Below, piece by piece: positions 5,151 to 53,924 of a stretch of 64,000 nt of DNA. The notes below the pieces were generated by a model. The model made no database searches. It was not told the origin of the DNA and saw only the letters and a list, made by a program, of their open reading frames with translations. Within the stretch, counting starts at the first letter, position 1. Every line of letters begins with the position of its first letter. Source of the DNA: Octopus sinensis (Eukaryota); assembly GCF_006345805.1 (NCBI RefSeq), contig NC_043002.1, forward strand, positions 100,130,001-100,194,000, written 5' to 3'. Position numbers and translations under genes: made by a program.

Positions 5151-6612
5151 ATATTTCAAACACTTTTTGTTTGAGAAAGAAAGTTAACAATTTAGCGGCT
5201 GTTCCGTCAAAAAGTGTAATTAATATACAACATCTAAATAGTTATAGAATCTATATAGTTATAGAATATATTTTCAATTAAAAGCATCGATAAAACTTTT
5301 ACGAACAGAAATTTAAGTAGAATTTCATGTTTATCTAATTTTCGTGTTTTGTAAATCCCTCAATCAATCGATTGATCAAACCATCATTATTCATATATAT
5401 CATATTTATTTCGACTTCCATTGCATCAATTTACCAGATGCCTTCTCCATTGGGTGATTAGCTCATCTGGTTTGGTAAGGCCTCCTCACGCTGCACTCAG
5501 CGTAAAAATAGCATTTATTACTTCAACAAAATATACCAATTATGCTATAGAAGTGCTTCCTAAACCAATAAACCGTAACAATTAATGGATCTCTTTCTTT
5601 ACATCATGTGGCAAGATAGTCTATTAGATTTCTACACTAAATACACTGCACATTGTCAGGTCCAGAACATTAGTTATGAAATGTTCAGTTGTTTACCCAG
5701 CAGCCGCATCACTTTAGAAACAGCTGTTCTATGCTGCTGTTTAAATGAAGTTAAATTTCTCAATCATTAAGAAGAAATATCTGACGAAATGTTACCTAAT
5801 CACACATTTAAAGATTTTCATACATAAAATTTAAAAGCCCCTTTCAGAGAGTAGCAGTAAATAAATAAATCTTCGCTATGAATATTTAGATGAGTTACCT
5901 AAGTACGTATTTAGACAATAATCAAATGTCTCCTAAAGCGACATAAGTAAGTGATAAGTAAGTGGATAAATAAGTAAGATGATAAGTAAGTGGTTAAATT
6001 CTTATTATTATTCCTTTAGTCAATTGTCGTAGTTCGGAGAACTTGCTTAAATATATTATATGACTGACATTAAAATGCCAACGATTATATAACACTGGTC
6101 ATATTTAAACGCAGGTGTTATCTAAACCATTCAATACTCATATGATATTGTCGATGCTAACTGTTCGCAATATACCGGAATGAAATTAATTACAGTACTA
6201 CATTAGAATCAATGTTTACAACTTGAATAGAGGAATGGCATATAAACTGCTACCTTTTAGAAACCGTTAGAAATCTACATACACCACTGAATTGCATAAA
6301 TTGTATTCATCCCCCCCCTGCTCAATATGTGTTTGGTGTTATTTGTCAATATTTAGTAACGTGCTGTCCATTTCACATCGCCAGAGTCGATTTTAGTAAA
6401 TCTAGTACTCATTGTAGGATAGGCGTTATTATTTAGATATTTCGCATTGTCTAAAATATATATATATATATATATATATATCTATATTGTATAGAGGGCA
6501 TTATTACACATAAATGCCTCACACTAAGAGGGACAAAGTCATTACTACCAAAATTTATACTAATCATACCCAAATGCAGTTTTTCAAAGCAAGACATTTA
6601 AAAAATGAATTT

Positions 6613-6670
6613 AGTTCTGTATCACCGTGATTTCACATTCAACTTACGTCTTATGATCATCAGCAGAACT
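6613..6670 (-). ncRNA. Mirror copy of the hammerhead-like motif on the minus strand
   Basis: Reverse complement of 6903-6960 within the palindrome. Confidence 0.65.
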
Positions 6671-6902
6671 GATTCTGAACACATCATAAATAAACTACCA
6701 ACCTTACGTAGCGAAGACGAACAGACAACTGCTCACTCCGGCCAAGCACATGGAATGTTTATAAATCATATATCCGGTAAATGGCGGGCCATTTACCGGA
6801 TATATGATTTATAAACATTCCATGTGCTTGGCCGGAGTGAGCAGTTGTCTGTTCGTCTTCGCTACGTAAGGTTGGTAGTTTATTTATGATGTGTTCAGAA
6901 TC

Positions 6903-6960
6903 AGTTCTGCTGATGATCATAAGACGTAAGTTGAATGTGAAATCACGGTGATACAGAACT
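6903..6960 (+). ncRNA. Type I hammerhead ribozyme-like motif
   Basis: Stem I AGTTCTG/CAGAACT (7 bp); core CTGATGA at 6910-6916; stem II CAT/ATG extended by GAC-GTAA-GTT; GAAA at 6939-6942; stem III ATCAC-G-GTGAT; AUA cleavage triplet. Position 10.1-11.1 is U-U, which is non-canonical. Confidence 0.65.
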
Positions 6961-7216
6961 AAATTCATTTTTTAAATGTCTTGCTTTGAAAATCTGCATT
7001 TGGGTATGATTAGTATAAATTTTGGTAGTAATGACTTTGTCCCTCTTAGTGTGAGGCATTTATGTGTAATAATGCCCTCTATACAATATAGATATAATTA
7101 ATTTGTTCAAAAGAAAAAATTATTTTCGAATTCTTTTCTTTTATGAGGTTTTCACGCTAGCTGCCCGATAATTTCTTGTTAAGATCCCTTATTAAGAGAT
7201 TATCCTTAATTGTTAA

Positions 7217-22944: not shown

Positions 22945-24490
22945 GGTTTCGGCCATTATTGGCCCAGGCCATGTCTAACTTAATAGCACCACCTGGTGAA
23001 GTCTTTCAAGTCAGAATTTGGGCACTATGGCCCACTCAAGTAGAGAGTTATTGTTTACAGAGACATATCCGGGTGTATGGGGTTTATCCGGGATTTCTTG
23101 AAGGAATCTGTCCAAAGACTTCTTGAACCCTATAGGGTCAGTTTCTGTTTTAATGTGTTTTGGTGTAATGTTAAAGAGAGCGGGGCCAATTGAGGTGAAA
23201 TAATTGTGCCGTATTGTTGTTATGAGATGAGAGTGCGATTTTTGTTTTGGGCGGATGGCACGGGGCCCAAGCCTGGATGTACCTTAAAGGTGATGCCAAC
23301 ATCATTTGGGCAATGCTGATGGAATATTTTCCACATCATGCAGATGATGTAGCGCTCACGACGACGTTGGAGAGAATAGAGTTTTAGCTTTTCTAGCCGA
23401 CCCCAATAGTCGAGGCCTGACATGCCATCTATCTTTTTTGTGATTGCCCTTTGAGGTGCTTCAACTTTTATGATACCTTGTATTGTGTGGGGAGACCACA
23501 GTGGACAACAGTATTCAAGGTGGGGTCGGGCAAAAGTGGAGAAGAGAAGGATAATGGTGTGGATATCTCTCGACTGGAAAGTTCTGAGAATCCAGGAACA
23601 CATTCTGCGGGCCATGTCAACTTTGGTGTTTATATGAGTGGCCCAGCTTACGTTGTTGTCCACAATTACTCCCAAGTCTCTGATGTTGTTGGACGCCGCG
23701 AGAGTTTCACCTGAAGGAAGGGAGTATGGGAGTTTCAGGGCACCCTCTTTTCCAAAGTGGATTAGCTCAAATTTATCCTCGTTCAGCAGCATATTGTTTT
23801 TTTCTGCCCATTGGATAACAGCCAGTAGATCTGACTGAAGGCATGTCCGGTCACTCGCCTCATTTATGACCTTCTGTAGCTTGGAGTCATCTGCAAAGAT
23901 TTTTATGTTGCTGTGCTTGATGATGTCATTAATGTCATTAATGTAAATGATGAAAAGAAGTGGGCCCAGCACAGTGCCTTGCGGAACGCCACTACTGACT
24001 TTGGCTGGGCTTGATTTTACCCCTTCAACTACAACATGTTGAGATCTGTCTGTCAGGAAACACTTAATCCATTTCAGTAACTTTCCAGAGACACCAATGT
24101 TGGATAGTTTTTTCAATAGGATCTTGTGATCGACCCTGTCGAAAGCCTTACTGAAATCAAGGTAGATGACATCGGTGTTGGAGCCCTCTCCCAAAGCTCT
24201 CAAAATGTCCTCAAAGTGATGCAGGAGCTGCGTTAGGCAGTCCCTTCCATTACGGAACCCATGTTGGTTGGAGATCAGCCGTCTGTTGCTTTCCAGAAAT
24301 TGGGTTATTCAAGATCTCACAACCCTCTCAAATACCTTGATGATATGAGAGGTGAGTGAGATCGGACGGTAATTCACTGCAAGGGACTTGTTTCCCTTTT
24401 TGAAAACTGGGACAACAGACTGGGACAGAAGGTGTTTTGGAATATAGACAGCATCCAGTGAGTTTCTCCACCGATTAGCAAGGGGAGATG
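22945..24490 (-). mobile_element. 5'-truncated CR1-group LINE (RT domain to 3' UTR) with few frameshifts
   Basis: ORF 23220-24203 contains YLDFSKAFDRVDH, SGVPQGTVLGPLLF, IFADD, RPHLEYC and LYSLQRRRERY. NYRPISLTS lies upstream in 24309-24509. Confidence 0.95.
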
Positions 24491-32200: not shown

Positions 32201-33667
32201 GCGCTTCAGAATGTTTTGTTGTTATCACTGAATACAAACGTAGGTTCACTGTAGATATATGAGAAACTTGCTTCATAAAGGTGACAACCATATAATAGAG
32301 GAAACAAGTAAGTCTAGGTACAGTTGAACTGCATTATAACAAAAAAAGTTATTCTCTTGGAGTTTCAGTATGTTAGAATACGCAGTTACTTTTATATATA
32401 TTTTTAACTTATTCGATCATAAATATAAGAATATACTATTCCATAATAGAAAAATAATAAAATGAGATTAAACGAGTTTGCTAATGGATACTGTCGCTGA
32501 AAAGAATCAGAATGGTATACATAAAATGTTGTAGATAAAATTGAGTCTGCAAAGTCGTGTTTTCTGAATCATAAAATTCCCCTGTGTAAATGACCACAAT
32601 CCTTCTTAGTGACTATGCAATGCTACGATTTCTATTCAGAATTATTCATAGTTCATAGGAGTTGAGCGAGACATATTTCTGTAAATATGACAGATTAATA
32701 TGGTTTCAGAAAGCCTACAGAAGAATTAAGTAGTGCTATACTGAAGCATAGTCTTCTGCTTTTGGTCTTTTTCCAAAATAAACAAAGATATAAAATTTAG
32801 ATTCAAGCATATTATTTAATATTTGGAATAGCGATTAGTAACTCAGGGTTTCAGGTATAATCGTTTAGTAACATAGGTTTTACCTATGGTAACTTAGATC
32901 GACACCACTAGTATGGTGATGTGATAAATTTCAACCCTGGAAATATTAGAATTTGGAAACTAAGACCTTTATTACATTGGTTCAAGAATATATTTACGGC
33001 TCGCTAGTTCAGTTTGCAAACACGTGTTTCTGGTCTCAATCCCACCTCTTGATTACATTTATTCTATAGTGTCAGTTTGTCCCTCATCACCACCAACGAG
33101 CTTCTGAGTGCAATTGAGTAGACGGAAATTGTATGGAAGCGCATCACACATGTGCACGTGTCAGTAGCAATGGATATCAGCAATGTAGCAAACATTAGCG
33201 AAAATACGGGTAACCGGTATTTTTTGAGCGAAACCCATTGTGTTAATTGCCTTTTTCTAAGGTACGGACATAAACAAATAGAGACCTATAGCCGATGAAG
33301 TTATTATTCCCCAAACACAATACTATTTCATTTGCTATAAATGAACATTACACTTCACCTTAATAACCTCTTAAGTAGTATAGCGAAAACTAAAAATAGA
33401 TTATTTCTAGAAATATATCATTGTTATTTCGTTATTTCTTTAATTCGGTACACTGTTTATAACAAATAAACATATAGATTTCAAAATGCAAAATTATGTT
33501 TAAAAATAATATTGTATTGTTGAAATTCTAAAGACTCGGTGATGGCAATTGGAAACTAAACCAGTCAAATACTTGTTTCACTTTATTAAATTTGAAACAC
33601 TAAGATATGTCTGTGAATAGAGAGAGATGCAATACCTTATGATAATATATTATTTGTGTTCTTAATT

Positions 33668-34165
33668 CATAACTCTCGTTATCTCCTCAAAGACATACAG
33701 CATCTCGAAAGAGTCCAGAAGCTGGCTACCCGCATGGTTCTTGGTCTCAAGAATTTGTCTTATGAAGAAAGGCTGAAGACGCTCGACCTTTATTCTCTAG
33801 AAAAACGACGACGCTGTGGAGATCTCATTCTTGCTCACAACATCATAAGCGGAAAGTGTAACCTCTCGAAAGAGCTGTTCATCACTCCTGCTCAAGAGCG
33901 TCGGCTGCGGGGTCACTCCGAAAAGCTCTATCTGCGACGATTTAATCTCAATCGAAGGAGAGGGGCTTTTCTCCGTCCGAGTTGCGAATCCGTGGAATAA
34001 GCTGCCAGACGAGATGGTGAAGATGCCGACGACCGCTCGGGTCAAAGTCTCCTTTGACCTCAAGTGGCCTGAACTCTTTACATGAACACCACCCTGTACA
34101 TAACTCCATGTCCCCCTACATGGCCTTGCTTTTTGCTTTTGGAGCCAAAAAATTAACTAACTAAC
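33668..34165 (+). mobile_element. 3' end of a CR1/L2-group LINE
   Basis: KDIQHLERVQKLATRMVLGLKNLSYEERLKTLDLYSLEKRR..GDLI and RLRGHSEKL, then a frameshifted VRVANPWNKLP; (AACT)n tail. Confidence 0.9.
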
Positions 34166-35824: not shown

Positions 35825-38205
35825 AACTAGATTCTGGTGATATGTATATATACAGAAGAAAAGTGTCTGAAGATAAGCGAGAAAGATAAGTGATATATGG
35901 CGAACTGACTAGAAATTTTAAATTCAATGGCAACAAAATTATTGCATAATTTCCTCGAAAACCAAGACCAGAGAGGGACTGGAATTCTCTAATGAAACTA
36001 TTTCAATTAATTTACAATTCTAATGTCTTCTGGAAAGTAGGAATAGTTAGGAATTGTCTAATTCCATTTTACCTTTCATTAACAGTAAAGGTCTGTAATA
36101 ATGAATTATCTTTATTACGGTTGGCTAATTTGCGAGCAATGTGAACAACATTGGGCTACAGTTTACCGTCTAAAATAAATAGAAATTTAGGGCGATGTAT
36201 TCTTTGAAACAATGTATCAAATGTATCAAATTATTGCATTATCGAGGTTATTCATCTTTTAATACGTTTACAAATATGTTTTATTAACAATCATGGTTAA
36301 ATAAAATTCGGTCAGAATCTGATTTATGGATACTCTTTTAGAAGATAGTTAATTAATTCAAAAATATATAAATTACAGAGGATTTACTATCAAACCTTAA
36401 ATGTATTGAAGTATGGTAACTGCAACTTGATTCCGCAACCGGTTTCTTTTTATTCATGGTTTCGGTGGTGTAACATTTATTTAAGAAATTAGTACTTAAG
36501 AAAACTCTGAACACAATAACTTTAAGACAAGCTCTCTGTATTGCAATTATAGAGTACAGAAGTAAAGTTGTAAAGCAATAAAAAAAATGTGTGATTCAAA
36601 ACCGCTGTGGAAATGTTACTTCTCAGATAGCTACTTTAACATCACGTGCACTATAATGTCCTTATAGAATTATAGTCCGCTGCATACAATCTAGTCAGGT
36701 TTTCAATGTAAGGGTAACTACTTCTCTTCCAGTTATCATGTGAAGAATGAGTGGTTACTGCATTCTCCATTATGATTAAGATTTGTATTAATTCATAGCT
36801 CCACATTTCTTCTAGCTTAACTATATATTTAAATGCATTGGGTCTATTAAATGTGAAAAAATAAACCAATATTAAATCGTGCAAGGTAAACGAAACGAAT
36901 ATTCTCGACAAACTCATTGTCCGCCAAATCGTTATCTACAGATAATATCATTTCCTTTGCCTTACACTGTTATGTCAACATTTCCAACATCCTGTTGCTT
37001 CATTTACTAAATGCGGTTAAGTTGTCTGTGGTGAATCAGAAAGCAGTTATTTCAAAAAGTATGGTAGCTATTATTTATAAAGAAATGTTAATTAGTTTCA
37101 TTTATATGTTAATCAGTTGTGTATAGTCTTATTTACTTTTTGCTGCGCGTTATAATTAATCATTATATTATTATGTGGTAATTAACTAATCCAATTCTCT
37201 TGCATCTGTAGAATTAGTCATAATTCTTAAATTAAATTTTCAATCTATTCAAAACGTAAGCTTTCATGTACATTGTATTGTCTCTGTATTCATTACAACT
37301 GATTCACCAAAAGTATAATCAGATTCATGAACTATTATTTAATTTTGTTTTCTAATACTTAGCATTAAACAGATCTTCGATTTCCATAGTTACTTTACTC
37401 AGGAAAGGGTTATTTTAAATGTGTATTAATATCTTTGTAGCGTGAAATTAAACGACAAGGAATGTTGTCATTTGTCTTCGTATAAAAGAACTTTTTTTTT
37501 TTGACATTTAATTTAAAATTCTATAAACATAATCACATTTAAATTTCAATGTGAAATATGTATTTTTGCTGCCAATATTCTTCAAAGAAAATTATTTCTT
37601 TATTTATTTATACAATGCGTAAATTCATTTAGTGGGCGGCGAATGTACAAGAAGTGATTTTGATGTTTTCCATCGGATTACTAGCGTAAGAAAACTAAAC
37701 TTCAATGAGTTATACTGTTTTGAGTTCAAATTCCCCAGACAGAACATATGCATTATATACTTCAATTTATGTCGAAGGTACAAAACAGAGACTCACTTAA
37801 CTACTGCTATTCATAATAAACTACAATAATCTCCAATAAATGTGGTCGTGTTTAAACATTTAAAGCGGTTATTCTTATTTTTTGCCAGTAGCCTCATTCG
37901 AATATTTCACTACACCACGCGGCGTACTGCAAAATAATGTTCCGAAAGTATTGTTATTGCTATGTAGAAATGTTTAGTGTTCGTAAATCATTAAGTGTAT
38001 GGCATAAAGCCCATTCATTTTAGATGGGAGAGGGTTTTACATTATTAGAGGTTCATTCTGATGATTAGGTATAGATTATAACTAATGCCAGATAACTGAA
38101 GGTGTATTTCAGATGGGAACTGCTTTCATTAGGGCTACGTTTTAGATATATATACGCGTGTGTGAGTGTGTGTATATGTGTGTGTGTTTTAAATAAAATA
38201 ACTAC

Positions 38206-38403
38206 GCCAAGGCAATTTGATATTCCTAGAAATTAAAAATGTGGTCTTACAGCTGTTTCGGGGAAATAAATGATGTCCCATTTAAAAGAGCTTGAAGCTC
38301 TTTTAACTAGTCTCTGATGATATGATATCATTTATTTCCCTGAAAAAGCTGTAAGACCACCTTTCTACTTATAAATGTGCTAGGAATATCAAATTGCCTT
38401 GGC
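38206..38403. repeat. About 200-bp imperfect fold-back with a central 25-bp hairpin
   Basis: GCCAAGGCAATTTGATATTCCTAG / CTAGGAATATCAAATTGCCTTGGC; GTGGTCTTACAGCT / AGCTGTAAGACCAC; centre TTAAAAGAGCTT-G-AAGCTCTTTTAA. Confidence 0.9.
38310..38357 (+). ncRNA. Type I hammerhead ribozyme relic
   Basis: GTCT-CTGATGA-(stem II)-GAAA-AAGCTG-TA-AGAC. The opposite arm preserves GGGA..TCCC-CGAAACAGCTGTA-AGAC, giving a canonical consensus with a GUA cleavage site. Confidence 0.65.
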
Positions 38404-38587
38404 CTCGTTATCTTATTATAGTTAACAAATACACGCTCACACAGGTCCTGCGCTAGACTCCTCACTCATGCTATTATTGAACCGAGAGCTTAAGAGCGGT
38501 CCTTCCGTAGCGCTTACATAGCCTTACTTGCCTTTTGGGTCTCCTTGTTACAAAACATCTTACACACACACACACACACACACACAC

Positions 38588-38651
<64 letters not shown>

Positions 38652-48649: not shown

Positions 48650-51457
48650 GTATGTGTTCATCATTAGCTACATTATATTTAATTATCCATCTTTTCCATT
48701 TTGTCTGCCGGGGCCATGAGAATGTTTCTTACTAAAGATATATAAACAGGAATGAGTGTATAACTTTGGAATAAATTTAGTTGTTATCATCGTCACCCTA
48801 CAACTATGAAATATCAGCTGTTTTGCATGAACGGTTAAATGAATGAGAAATTAGTATAACGGCAAATGAAATTACCTTTGGGTTTGTATTTTCCTGATAA
48901 CTCTAATAACAGTTACCAGATTTTATTTCTCTTGGCGATATCTTACGACGTCATTGAAATTAATCGATGCTTTATGCCCTTTCATATTTTTATACGTGTT
49001 CCTACTTACATTCTTCAGAACAAATATAGTTTGTGATATTTTTCCTAGGCTGACATCTCTATCTTTTATGTATTCCTGAAACTGTTATGCATCAGCGTTT
49101 CAATCTCAACATTGATTACACTATGCCTACTCCATCAAATACAATTTCGTACAGGATGTGCGGTTCTCCGAATAATCTTTCTCCATCTTAGACTTTAAAT
49201 CGCTTCTTAGAAAGCTTTTCATGATTAGTAATGAAATCGAGTTTTGCAATATTTTCAGTGGATACTAAAATATTAGTGAAATTTTCTCTCAGCAACTTTT
49301 AAACGAATTCACCCTTTCATAGCAAAAACTTTGCTTCACTTAAATATCTTTTTCTTTGCAATATTCATGTGTCAGTCATGAATTTTACACTTTCCGACAA
49401 AAAAATAAATAAATAATAAAAGAAGCTCGCGTCTTCCAGATTGTCAAAAGCGCTTATCTAGTCACGACACTGCAACTATTATAGTCCAAATTTTAATATC
49501 TCCTCGAAAATTACGCTCATATGACAGTCACTTAATAAAATCATGTAGATATATACCAGAAAATTTGCACTACTATACTTATCTGAAACATCTAGCAATG
49601 ATGGAATCTCTATATACTCATTCGTCTTACTAGACTTAGCAGCCAAAGCTTTCGTAGATTACAACCTACTATCTTCAGAAAAATACATATCAATAATGAA
49701 GACACGAGTACACAACGTTTGATAAAGACTGGGTTGTAACTGTTGCAGTTATTTGATCACAGGTTTGGTCGATCATACTGGCATGGACCTAAACACGAAA
49801 AAAAATCAATATTTAAGATAAAAGTGAATAAGCTCTGCAGACTAAGATGTTAATGATTTGAATATGCGAATGGTTTAATTCCCAAACACCATTGTAAGAA
49901 ATTTAACCAAATAAAATATTTGTAAAAGCACAAGTGCAGTCGAAATTCTCGTATTTCACACAACATGTTATGAAACAAACCTCTGTGAAGGTCTCACTAT
50001 ATGTGTTGAAAGAAGAAAACTTGAGTCATATATTCGGTTTATATTTGACATGCTGAGTACTGATGCTCACTGTGTAAATAGAGTTGAAGAATTGCACTGA
50101 CGAAAGTTACAACTTCACAACATGTCACTGTCCTACACTATTTTACAGAAACATATAACTAATCACTAACATAAAAAAGTTGTATATTGATACATTAGAA
50201 AAGAACAAATCAGCAAGGAGTACCGGAGGTCTAGGAGCCGTACATGATAGTAGAGAAGACGCCAATTTTTCCGAAGACATGTCTCAAAAAATCACCCTGT
50301 GACCTTATATGCAAATTTGGGTCACCTATATTCTTTAATGCGCTAAAACAAGTTGCCTTAATATGCACTACTAAAATTGGGCTGCATCTAATATTCCTGT
50401 GCGCTTTTTATGCCATCAAATAAACTATAAGTATAGGGTCTAGTTACCTTGCATTTCCTTGACCATTTTCTTTCGCATGCAATACTTACAATAAACATAT
50501 CTGATTGAGGGATGTATTACTTCCTCGCCAATTATTCAACACATATCTTAAACTAATCTAAGTATACTAAAAATATGTCAATGAGTACTTAGGGCTACTT
50601 TTGATTTGCTGAAAACCAAATTTGACTACAAATGAATTTTGCAAGCATATTTTACGATCTACTGATTAAAAGGTTCTCATGTAGCCAAACACACTAAAGC
50701 GATTCTCTCGTGAATGAAAGAAAGCAATGGGAAATATTAAAATCGTGGTGAAAAACAAAACATTGCACCCTTCTGTGAGTGTCTTTAGGTCTATATGTAC
50801 ACATACACGCACACACACATTATTGATGCCATAAGAAATTTATAACTTCAGAGTAAGTGTGGGATAGTTTTTGCGTGAGGGGAGAAAATTTGTCTCAAAA
50901 TACACATAAAAAACTATAAATAACAGCTAGGAAATGATGGACTGAAAACAAAGTCCCTTTTAGATAGGAAAGTTCCACGGGCAGACTCCGGATATCTTTC
51001 TCCGAAAGGTTCATATCATATAGCTTTGAGAACTTTGAGAAGCAATTTCAAAAATGAATTATATATCTGTGTGTGTGTGTGTCACAAATTAAATAAACGA
51101 TAAGGTTGCAAAATAATAATGTAAGGAAATTCATTAGCTTGTAGTAACAATAAGTTACAATGCTCTGATAATTAAAAGTTTGTTTATTACAATATATGTT
51201 CGCTTCGGAGCTTTGGTGATGCACAAGAACATAGATACAAACGAATAAAGTTTGTTGTGTAACATTTTGTTCCGTTGTCATTTATTTAATTTCCTATTTC
51301 ACTGTGAACTCGAATGACACCTTTTCCTGAAGAACGTGTATATCACTACACCACACCACCTCACGATACACGACCATACCACACATCATATCACACACTA
51401 CGCACACACTAACACTGACCACTTGCCAGCCCCACACCATCATCCACACATCTACAC

Positions 51458-51557
51458 NNNNNNNNNNNNNNNNNNNNNNNNNNNNNNNNNNNNNNNNNNN
51501 NNNNNNNNNNNNNNNNNNNNNNNNNNNNNNNNNNNNNNNNNNNNNNNNNNNNNNNNN
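51458..51557. other. Assembly gap (100 N)
   Basis: Run of N. Confidence 1.
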
Positions 51558-53315
51558 GTGTCCTCAGTGTCTGTATTGCCTGTGAGACTTTTGTATCATC
51601 TGCATAACTTGTGATCGTGGCTCTCTGCGTGGCTGAGGGCATGTCTGAGAGGGCCATTATGAACAGTAGTGGTCCCAGAACAGTGCCCTGCGGAACACCG
51701 CTCACTATTTGCGTGTTAGTGAAAGTGGCCCCATTGGCCACTACCACCTGACTTCTATCTTTCAGAAAGTCATGAAGCCATTCTCCCAGTTTTCCAACTA
51801 TGTTGAGATCACGCAGTTTGTGACATATCATTCCATGATCGACTTTATCAAAGGCCTTTGCAAAGTCGAGATATATGACTTCCACATTTGAGTGGTTGAG
51901 CAGCCGTTTCAGCACCCAGTCATAGTGTTGTAGGAGCTGAGTTAAACAGCTTCTCCCTGGTCGGAAACCATGTTGGGTGTCGGGCAGCAAGTCATTTTCT
52001 TCAAGGAAGGTGATCAGCTTCCTTCTGACTATTCGTTCCATGACCTTGCTGATGTGTGAGGTCAGAGAGATAGGTCTATAGTTCTTGGCTTCCGCTCTGC
52101 TACCTCCTTTATGAATGGGGCATATTTACCTTCCTTCAGTTTTCTTGGAAGTTTGCCAGCTGCAAGGAAGCTCTGAAAGAGGAACTGCAGTGGTCTTGCT
52201 AGGACTCTCTTACATGCTTTTAGGAGGATTGCGGGAATCCATCGGGGCCAGTAGCTGAGTCTGTTTTCATTTCATCTATAGCCTTGATTACATCGTCATC
52301 CTTTATATCGATGTAATCTATCGTCGCCGCCTCTGATTTTATATCTGCAGTGGTAAAAAAGTCAGTTGGATTGGTGATTTGGAGATGCCCAAGGGGTGGA
52401 GTGAAAACACTCTTGAATTGCTCATTCAGTATTTCACTTACCCTCATTGGTTTTCCTGTAAGTGTGCCATCCTTTTCGAGGAGTGGCCCTATTCTACAGT
52501 GCATGGGAGAGTTTCATGGGAGAGTTTCAGACATTTTTCGATTTCCAACAGTTTTATTTTTAGGCGGGACTTTTCACTGCTTTCAATCTGTTTGTTTAGG
52601 CGATTTGAAAATTTTGTACGCCGTCTCATTAGAATTTTCCTCTCTCTGGGGATTTTGTTCTTGTGTACAGTGGCCTTTCTCTCTGGGACATATTTGTAGC
52701 ATATGGCTTGCATTACAGACATGAATTGTTGAAGTTTCACGTCGATGTCTGGCGAGGAGAGACATTTAGGCCAGTTTTGTTTGAGGATCTCTTTCTCAAT
52801 TTGTTTCCAGTTTGCCTTATGGTAGTTCAAGCTGGAAAGATTCTGGGATTTTTGTAGGCTGCATGTCCGTGCTCTCTTTTGGCCCGTACATGGTCAGCTC
52901 TATCATGTTGTGATCCGAGAGTAGTGTCGGTGTCACTTTCACATTATGGATGAGATCCATGTCATTTGTGAAGCAGAGATCCAGTGTGTTACCTGCCCTG
53001 GTTGGTTGGAGTATTACCTGCTCCATGTACAGGGTGTTGATGAGGTTCAGGAGGGACCTCGCCTGTCCTCGTTCACATCTTGTCATTCCTGGGAGAGAAA
53101 GGCCCTCGGGCCAGCTGACATTTGGCAGATTGAAGTTTCCCATAAGAAGTACACTTATGTGTTGTTCTAATGTGGTTAGAACTTCTTCTATTTTTATAAG
53201 GCAGTCTTCAAACTTGCTCACATGGCTTGGGGCATCTGGAGGGCGGTATGTAGCACACACAACTACATCAAGTTGCCTAATATGTACAATTAGTGTGTCA
53301 CACACCGAGTTTGAG
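51558..53315 (-). mobile_element. CR1-group LINE ORF2 fragment (part of the APE endonuclease through RT), frameshifted, running into the gap
   Basis: APE motifs [19 protein letters not shown] and SDH; ATGPDG; RT motifs QHGFRPGRSC, YLDFAKAFDKVDH, SGVPQGTVLGPLLF and YADD. Confidence 0.95.
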
Positions 53316-53321
53316 TATGAC

Positions 53322-53331
53322 AGTATATATG

Positions 53332-53384
<53 letters not shown>

Positions 53385-53893
53385 GTATATATGTATATAT
53401 ATATATATATGTATGTGTATATATGTATATATATATATATATATATGTGTATATATGTATATATATATATATGTATGTGTATATATGTATATATATATAT
53501 ATGTATGTGTATATATGTATATATATATATATGTATGTGTATATATGTATATATATATATATGTATGTGTATATATGTATATATATATATATAATGTATA
53601 TGTATATATATGTATATATATATATATGTATATGTATATATGTATATATGTATTATATATATGTATATGTATATATATGTATGTATATATATTATATGTA
53701 TATATGTATGTATATATATATATATATGTATATGTATATATATGTATATGTATATATATATATATGTATATGTATGTACATGTATATATATGTATATATG
53801 TATATATATATATATATGTATATATGTATATATATAATATATGTATATATGTATATATATATATATGTATATATGTATATATATATGTATATA

Positions 53894-53924
<31 letters not shown>

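Follow-up and report, generated by a model that had tools for sequence, protein, structure and literature searches.

The fold-back at positions 38189-38561 of the window (the whole stretch of Octopus sinensis DNA that was analysed, 64,000 nucleotides) is very probably a decayed insertion in which two copies of a hammerhead-bearing pLTR, both 5'-truncated, stand head to head; the pLTR is that of a Neptune-type Penelope-like element (PLE), and the copies were likely made from both ends of a cut microsatellite. Both arms belong to a dispersed repeat family, here called the 38206 family, that is linked to reverse transcriptase (RT) and GIY-YIG endonuclease (EN) sequences. The copies of this family have two discrete 3' ends, with one tail per head-to-head pair. 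The parts of the locus are as follows.

38140..38188: left flank, a (TA)/(GT) microsatellite target
38189..38293, minus strand: left arm, a 5'-truncated, tail-less 3' pLTR copy that ends at the family's short 3' end
38244..38281, minus strand: remnant hammerhead half of the left arm (stem II, GAAA, palindromic stem III, GUA and the 3' strand of stem I)
38291..38297: head-to-head junction, with the symmetry axis at 38294 inside a short quasi-palindrome
38295..38561, plus strand: right arm, a 5'-truncated, tail-bearing 3' pLTR copy
38310..38357, plus strand: decayed type I hammerhead of the right arm, with core boxes and stem I intact
38310-38313, plus strand: 5' strand of stem I, right arm
38314-38320, plus strand: CUGAUGA box, right arm
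38342-38345, plus strand: GAAA, right arm
38351-38353, plus strand: GUA, right arm, with the predicted cut between 38353 and 38354
38354-38357, plus strand: 3' strand of stem I, right arm
38426..38561, plus strand: one-sided tail of ~135 nt; in locus L128 the same sequence continues toward the N-terminus of the open reading frame (ORF)
38562..38650: right flank, an (AC)n(AT)n microsatellite target

The original prediction had placed a fold-back with hammerhead arms at 38206-38403. Its motifs are present where it put them and the fold-back is genuine: the segment 38200-38412 folds as a single hairpin (-108.5 kcal/mol, z -18.45), and none of 200 shuffled sequences folds as well. The unit itself has to be redrawn, because the left arm stops at the family's short 3' end and the right arm runs on to the long 3' end at about 38561, which gives 38189-38561. 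Single, gapless contigs cross the centre of the fold-back in three of four runs, from three organisms (X1, X2 and X7, with 0, 1 and 2 differences, respectively); for X4, no centre-spanning contig was seen among the matches listed. Since contigs bridge the centre in three runs, the fold-back is no assembly artefact, and the structure is real, old and shared. Aligned from 38294, where both arms are truncated at about -62 from the hammerhead cut site, the two arms differ only by a 13-nt deletion, an 8-nt deletion and substitutions, and they diverge at 17.4% of shared columns. In the hammerhead region, the right arm is 6.7% from its subfamily majority. No target-site duplication is readable in the microsatellite flanks of 38189-38561.

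The right arm was expected to carry CTGATGA, GAAA, GUA and stem I, and all of these are located within 38310-38357. On the left arm (minus strand), the reported absence of CTGATGA is borne out and is caused by the 13-nt deletion, which lies between 38282 and 38281 and removes the 5' strand of stem I together with the CUGAUG box. Stem II, GAAA, the palindrome and GUA are kept there, as had been claimed, and a cut would fall between 38248 and 38247; the 8-nt deletion is in the same arm, near 38231. The right arm has lost two stem II pairs and the stem III pair 15.2-16.2. In the hammerhead fold imposed on it (+6.2 kcal/mol), four designed pairs are broken (one of these breaks is typical of the subfamily), and its palindrome duplex is at -4.7 kcal/mol versus -11.1 kcal/mol for the family. 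A whole ribozyme, with intact core and stems, is found in neither arm of 38189-38561, and with the box lost on the left and the pairs broken on the right, the hammerhead of this locus is predicted to be inactive. Because the copy has decayed, two scans missed it: a hammerhead is absent among the 150 of 194 Rfam matches listed, and in the descriptor scan of the 64-kb window only the arms of a second fold-back, at 6477, pass.

The two arms had also been combined into one canonical hammerhead. This consensus does equal the majority type I hammerhead of the family, but neither an arm nor a transcript unites the two halves. The arms lie on opposite strands and therefore cannot complement each other, so that a ribozyme is 'reconstructed' from them only as a consensus; transcription of either strand would yield one hammerhead plus its antisense, in a predicted long duplex. 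Stem II, given as GGGA/TCCC, is present as well, but it extends to as many as 7 bp and has one unpaired base on each side.

The genome search suggested for the core motif was productive, as its pattern has 1,388 exact genome matches (728 + 660) versus 0 + 0 for a reversed control. A DNA search for the repeat returned at least 98 matches, with 40 of 233 candidates scored. The majority sequence of 79 aligned copies is the hammerhead combined from the two 38206 arms and reads, in type I order, a 4-bp stem I, CUGAUGA, an unpaired base, a stem II that has at most 7 bp and is closed by a 5-nt loop, a second unpaired base, GAAA, a stem III that is palindromic, and GUA. When this fold is imposed on the copies, 87.5% of cells are paired, compared to 17-52% when it is slid, and all hammerhead positions are kept in 7 of the 79 copies. 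For four near-majority copies, the imposed fold lies 3.5-6.9 kcal/mol above the minimum-energy fold.

Comparing the majorities of six subfamilies (118 copies, part of which were picked by the core pattern), we find that 4 of 41 columns vary in the core and stems, one of them as an alignment gap artefact, whereas all 5 columns of loop II and 15 of 19 and 30 of 64 flanking columns are variable. Such a difference suggests that the ribozyme was under selection in the source elements. The covariation that had been proposed as a check did not appear: among 32 copies, two pairs show two-sided change, and 186 of 500 shuffles score as high. Decay in individual copies is uncompensated, and the candidate ribozyme is supported instead by conservation among subfamilies. 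The unpaired bases that flank stem II are U.U in the subfamily of the 38206 locus and A.A, A.G or A.U in the others. We considered the U.U variant as a special, novel stem II and rejected it, as the available sections of PMC7229834 describe a U.U mismatch at the base of stem II in axolotl HHR_Amex2, and the variant is therefore not new. In one older subfamily (L137, L126, L129, L132 and L135), U4 of the catalytic box is replaced by C. Subfamilies are also mixed, with arms or copies that adjoin or nest at L061:3894-5241 and L119:6352-6492, which suggests insertion into older copies or mixed templates. A loose version of the core pattern has 14 matches in the whole window versus 3.3 expected; three are the hammerheads of 38206 and 6477, and eight others start with a CUGAAGA box and are possibly decayed PLE ends.

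Walking upstream from the hammerhead leads through a pyrimidine-rich untranslated region (UTR) of ~1 kb and then into coding remnants. Markers for RT, thumb, EN, UTR and hammerhead were mapped on 27 ten-kb loci. The same-strand order RT-thumb-(EN)-UTR-hammerhead is seen at L063, L064, L066, L067, L118, L119 and L122, with EN in between in five of them, and EN follows RT in L118, L119, L120, L122, L124 and L135; the remaining mapped loci mostly hold parts only. The layout is complete at L119, where an inverted, truncated, tail-less copy is followed by ORF remnants, UTR, hammerhead and tail. [quoted passage not shown] No intact ORF of the 38206 family was found among the loci examined.

Pfam and PDB sequence searches did not find the RT domain, and the fold search alone was informative. 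A model of the 476-aa open frame in L133, built from an alignment of 13 sequences, reaches pLDDT 77.6, and its top seven PDB structural matches are telomerase RTs (best E 1.8e-10). RVT_1 occurs in 16-48% of the members of the Atlas neighbours, and the sole named protein relative of the RT is from an octopus, at 81% identity. GIY-YIG (PF01541) matches have E values of 5e-4 and 0.019, both under the Pfam curated cut-off, and a Cys-rich, zinc-finger-like motif precedes GIY-YIG in L062, in L066 and in homologues. The RT motifs of the family are ones that we take to resemble Neptune. Together with the Cys-rich linker and the microsatellite targets, these presumed likenesses lead us to call the family Neptune-type, a provisional assignment made from these three features rather than from a reference tree. 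A Cys-rich linker between RT and EN is described for Neptune and Nematis in the available sections of PMC8557442.

Two other loci carry related ORFs. An intact 947-aa Neptune-type ORF at L179:1526-5838, from a young multi-copy family, is 43% identical to the RT region of the 38206 family and has an Asn-rich linker; an inverted 5'-truncated copy abuts its start, and the descriptor scan detected no hammerhead in the L179 locus. At L186:6400-6500, downstream of another Neptune-type ORF, a motif that resembles a hammerhead, its stem II long and branched and its stem III palindromic, can be recognized by eye.

Copies of the 38206 family end either ~75 nt or ~205-215 nt past the cut site, and the tail is the stretch of ~135-140 nt that separates these two 3' ends. 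Both orientations occur in 28 of the 78 loci with matches, and the 100 matches listed include at least 7 head-to-head and 0 tail-to-tail pairs whose members lie within 2.1 kb. Four two-orientation loci (L051, L057, L061 and L062) were unscorable and were left out. Exactly one tail is present in 22 of the 24 scorable head-to-head pairs; both arms are tailed in L128, where one tail continues into the ORF, and neither in L171. Within the 22 one-tail pairs, it is the tailed arm that extends further 5' in 12 (three marginally); the two extend equally far in 38189-38561, and the tailed arm extends less far 5' in 9. The loci are a similarity-based selection and not a random sample. Within a locus, the arms have diverged as much as unrelated copies have (0.132, 14 pairs, versus 0.133, 1,061 pairs), with no sign of homogenisation. 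An apparent excess of decay in tailed arms was rejected: each locus had been centred on the arm that matched best, which makes the excess an artefact of selection.

The sequence 3' of the short ends is an AC repeat in 11 cases, AT in 8, GT in 2 and other in 11 (n=32), and 3' of the long ends it is AT in 13, GT in 3, AC in 1 and other in 2 (n=19). AC, AT or GT repeats at 21 of 32 short and 17 of 19 long ends amount to a microsatellite bias, given here as raw counts from a repeat-rich genome and from a flank script that missed some arms and mis-called a few. These flanking repeats resemble the element's own sequence at each end.

We propose that the element's nuclease would cut both strands of a microsatellite, and that each DNA end would prime reverse transcription at an internal site, one of two that are fixed and lie one tail length apart. 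AC- and AU-rich RNA that matches the target repeat would help priming, and both cDNAs would stop early before being joined head to head, near-blunt. These steps agree with in vitro findings: according to the available sections of PMC11167929, the Anolis Poseidon protein cuts and extends both strands in vitro, and two internal start sites define the tail. Poseidon also has in common with the 38206 family an AC-rich start region and AT-rich targets; it belongs to a different clade, and its start sites are closer together.

The strongest alternative keeps the same element but makes the second arm by self-priming, with the cDNA folding back at a short palindrome and copying itself, as proposed for Adineta Penelopes. 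For 38189-38561 itself, self-priming fits as well as priming from two ends, because the arms are symmetric about a small palindrome and start at one point around a 1-nt loop. Junction palindromes are interpreted in this way in PMC3846280, in its available sections; the two arms of L030 have seven derived variants in common; and the tail-less arm is nested inside the tailed arm in 13 of the 22 one-tail pairs. However, in the other 9 neither arm contains the other, and the two arms of L176 share no overlap, which speaks against a fold-back origin unless later deletions made nested arms look non-nested. Turning points vary between loci, and no consistent microhomology or palindrome is seen at 16 junctions, where the arms are separated by up to 9 inserted nt or share up to 4 nt. 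Self-priming also leaves unexplained that the second arm ends at a single fixed position. Across the family we therefore consider self-priming unlikely, and the one-tail pairs, together with those that are not nested, favour priming from both target ends over simple fold-back.

In its most specific form, two-ended priming may be a coordinated twin priming by which Neptune elements integrate. One complex would assign the two cut ends to the two start sites, such that each insertion is head-to-head with one long tail. In this scheme, (TA)n would pair with the long site, which is AU-rich, and (TG)n or (TA)n with the short site, which is AC-rich. To this broader proposal we give even chances.

The hammerhead at 38189-38561 would itself have no role. 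In the once-active element, the hammerhead may have cut the transcript at GUA, and it probably processed these transcripts as a dimer through the palindromic stem III, as the predicted duplex energy of the family palindrome suggests. Dimeric PLE hammerheads were reportedly described by Lunse et al., who may describe this exact variant. A dimer model for PLE hammerheads is given in the available sections of PMC4209133 and PMC6765202, and in those of PMC11167929 the ribozyme is dispensable for insertion in the Anolis system in vitro.

It is very improbable that the fold-back is a distinct non-autonomous element, MITE-like or retrozyme-like, that spreads as a hairpin with cooperating arms. Many loci are indeed short, ORF-less fold-backs, and the window holds a second, unrelated one with hammerheads at 6477. 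However, junctions differ at every locus, the 13-nt deletion is found in only 1 of the 79 aligned copies, and arms of one locus are no closer to each other than to unrelated copies. Cooperation is further opposed by the pairing of hammerhead and antisense predicted for either transcript. Scarcely credible is a host hairpin RNA gene (for a microRNA or an siRNA precursor), or a palindrome that arose by chance or in assembly: the insertion is common to the runs of three organisms and its best Rfam match, among the 150 of 194 listed, is a plant MIR model, but the 63 bits of this match are far below the gathering score of 245, the arms differ by 17%, contigs bridge the centre and the sequence is a dispersed repeat. 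We rejected a microRNA identity, as Rfam microRNA models match via the hairpin or AT repeats only.

Elsewhere in the window, 23220-24308, 33617-34000 and 51409-53923 hold fragments that presumably resemble LINE reverse transcriptase and apurinic endonuclease. The second hammerhead fold-back, 6477-7096, is a perfect 309-nt fold-back of a ~480-bp, ORF-less tandem hammerhead repeat. As had been claimed, it is unrelated in sequence to 38206 (best E 0.76). Its family is young (98-99% identity, 1,884 candidates), and the descriptor scan finds the hammerhead of its arms intact, with U.U at the base of stem II. We rejected a tie between this family and a PLE ORF: no PLE protein match lies within 1.5 kb of 30 loci, and the 6477 arm was not found in 9 loci with Neptune-type ORFs. 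As an ORF-less repeat of short tandem units that each hold a hammerhead, the 6477 family fits a non-LTR retrozyme. The 6477 family also makes head-to-head pairs, and the architecture that it has in common with 38206 thus probably reflects shared Penelope machinery, which is consistent with the available sections of 10.64898/2026.07.22.740005.

The original prediction saw in both fold-backs a recurring class of hammerhead fold-back elements. The architecture does recur, in the 28 loci noted above, but the arms of the 38206 family are truncated ends of a protein-coding PLE that turn at varying points, and the arrangement is already published. In the available sections of PMC8557442 and PMC3846280, EN+ PLEs are described with inverted 5'-truncated copies, a tail at one end, pLTR hammerheads and a microsatellite bias. 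The 38206 family has in common with them the hammerhead pLTR, the head-to-head truncated copy, the one-end tail, the microsatellite targets, the RT followed by a C-terminal GIY-YIG, a Cys-rich linker of the Neptune/Nematis type and Asn-rich linker stretches. It differs in its tail, which is 30-40 nt in the elements of those papers, and in being old and decayed, with a 3' UTR of ~1 kb before the hammerhead. As far as the available sections of PMC4209133 and PMC6765202 go, metazoan PLE type I hammerheads have in common with the family the CUGANGA-H box, a short stem I and long stem II, GAAA, a palindromic stem III, and flanks that are U-rich on the 5' side and AU-rich on the 3' side; the unpaired base on both sides of stem II sets the family apart. 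The former paper also describes opposite-strand hammerhead pairs, 100-700 bp apart, in Schistosoma. Non-LTR retrozymes, in the available sections of PMC7229834 and bioRxiv 10.64898/2026.07.22.740005, likewise combine a type I hammerhead with a PLE link, whereas the repeats of the 38206 family are not short tandem ones and continue into an ORF for RT and EN. The architecture of 38206 is thus published, going by the available sections of PMC8557442, PMC3846280 and PMC4209133, and what is new is the family itself and its tail length. The literature searched, with few subscription papers and no Repbase, held no description of the 38206 family or of twin priming in PLEs.

Taken as a locus, 38189-38561 is an inert fossil; what gives it value is that, like many others, it records PLE integration as it happened in nature. 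Whether integration involves self-priming or two-ended priming is called unresolved in the available sections of PLE papers. Two-ended priming is favoured by the one-tail rule and by the arms that are not nested, and the two start sites are cleanly separated by the long tail. Hammerhead fold-backs in the Octopus sinensis genome should be read first as PLE stubs, and the genomic rule of one tail per pair (22 of 24, 9 of them not nested) makes twin priming testable.
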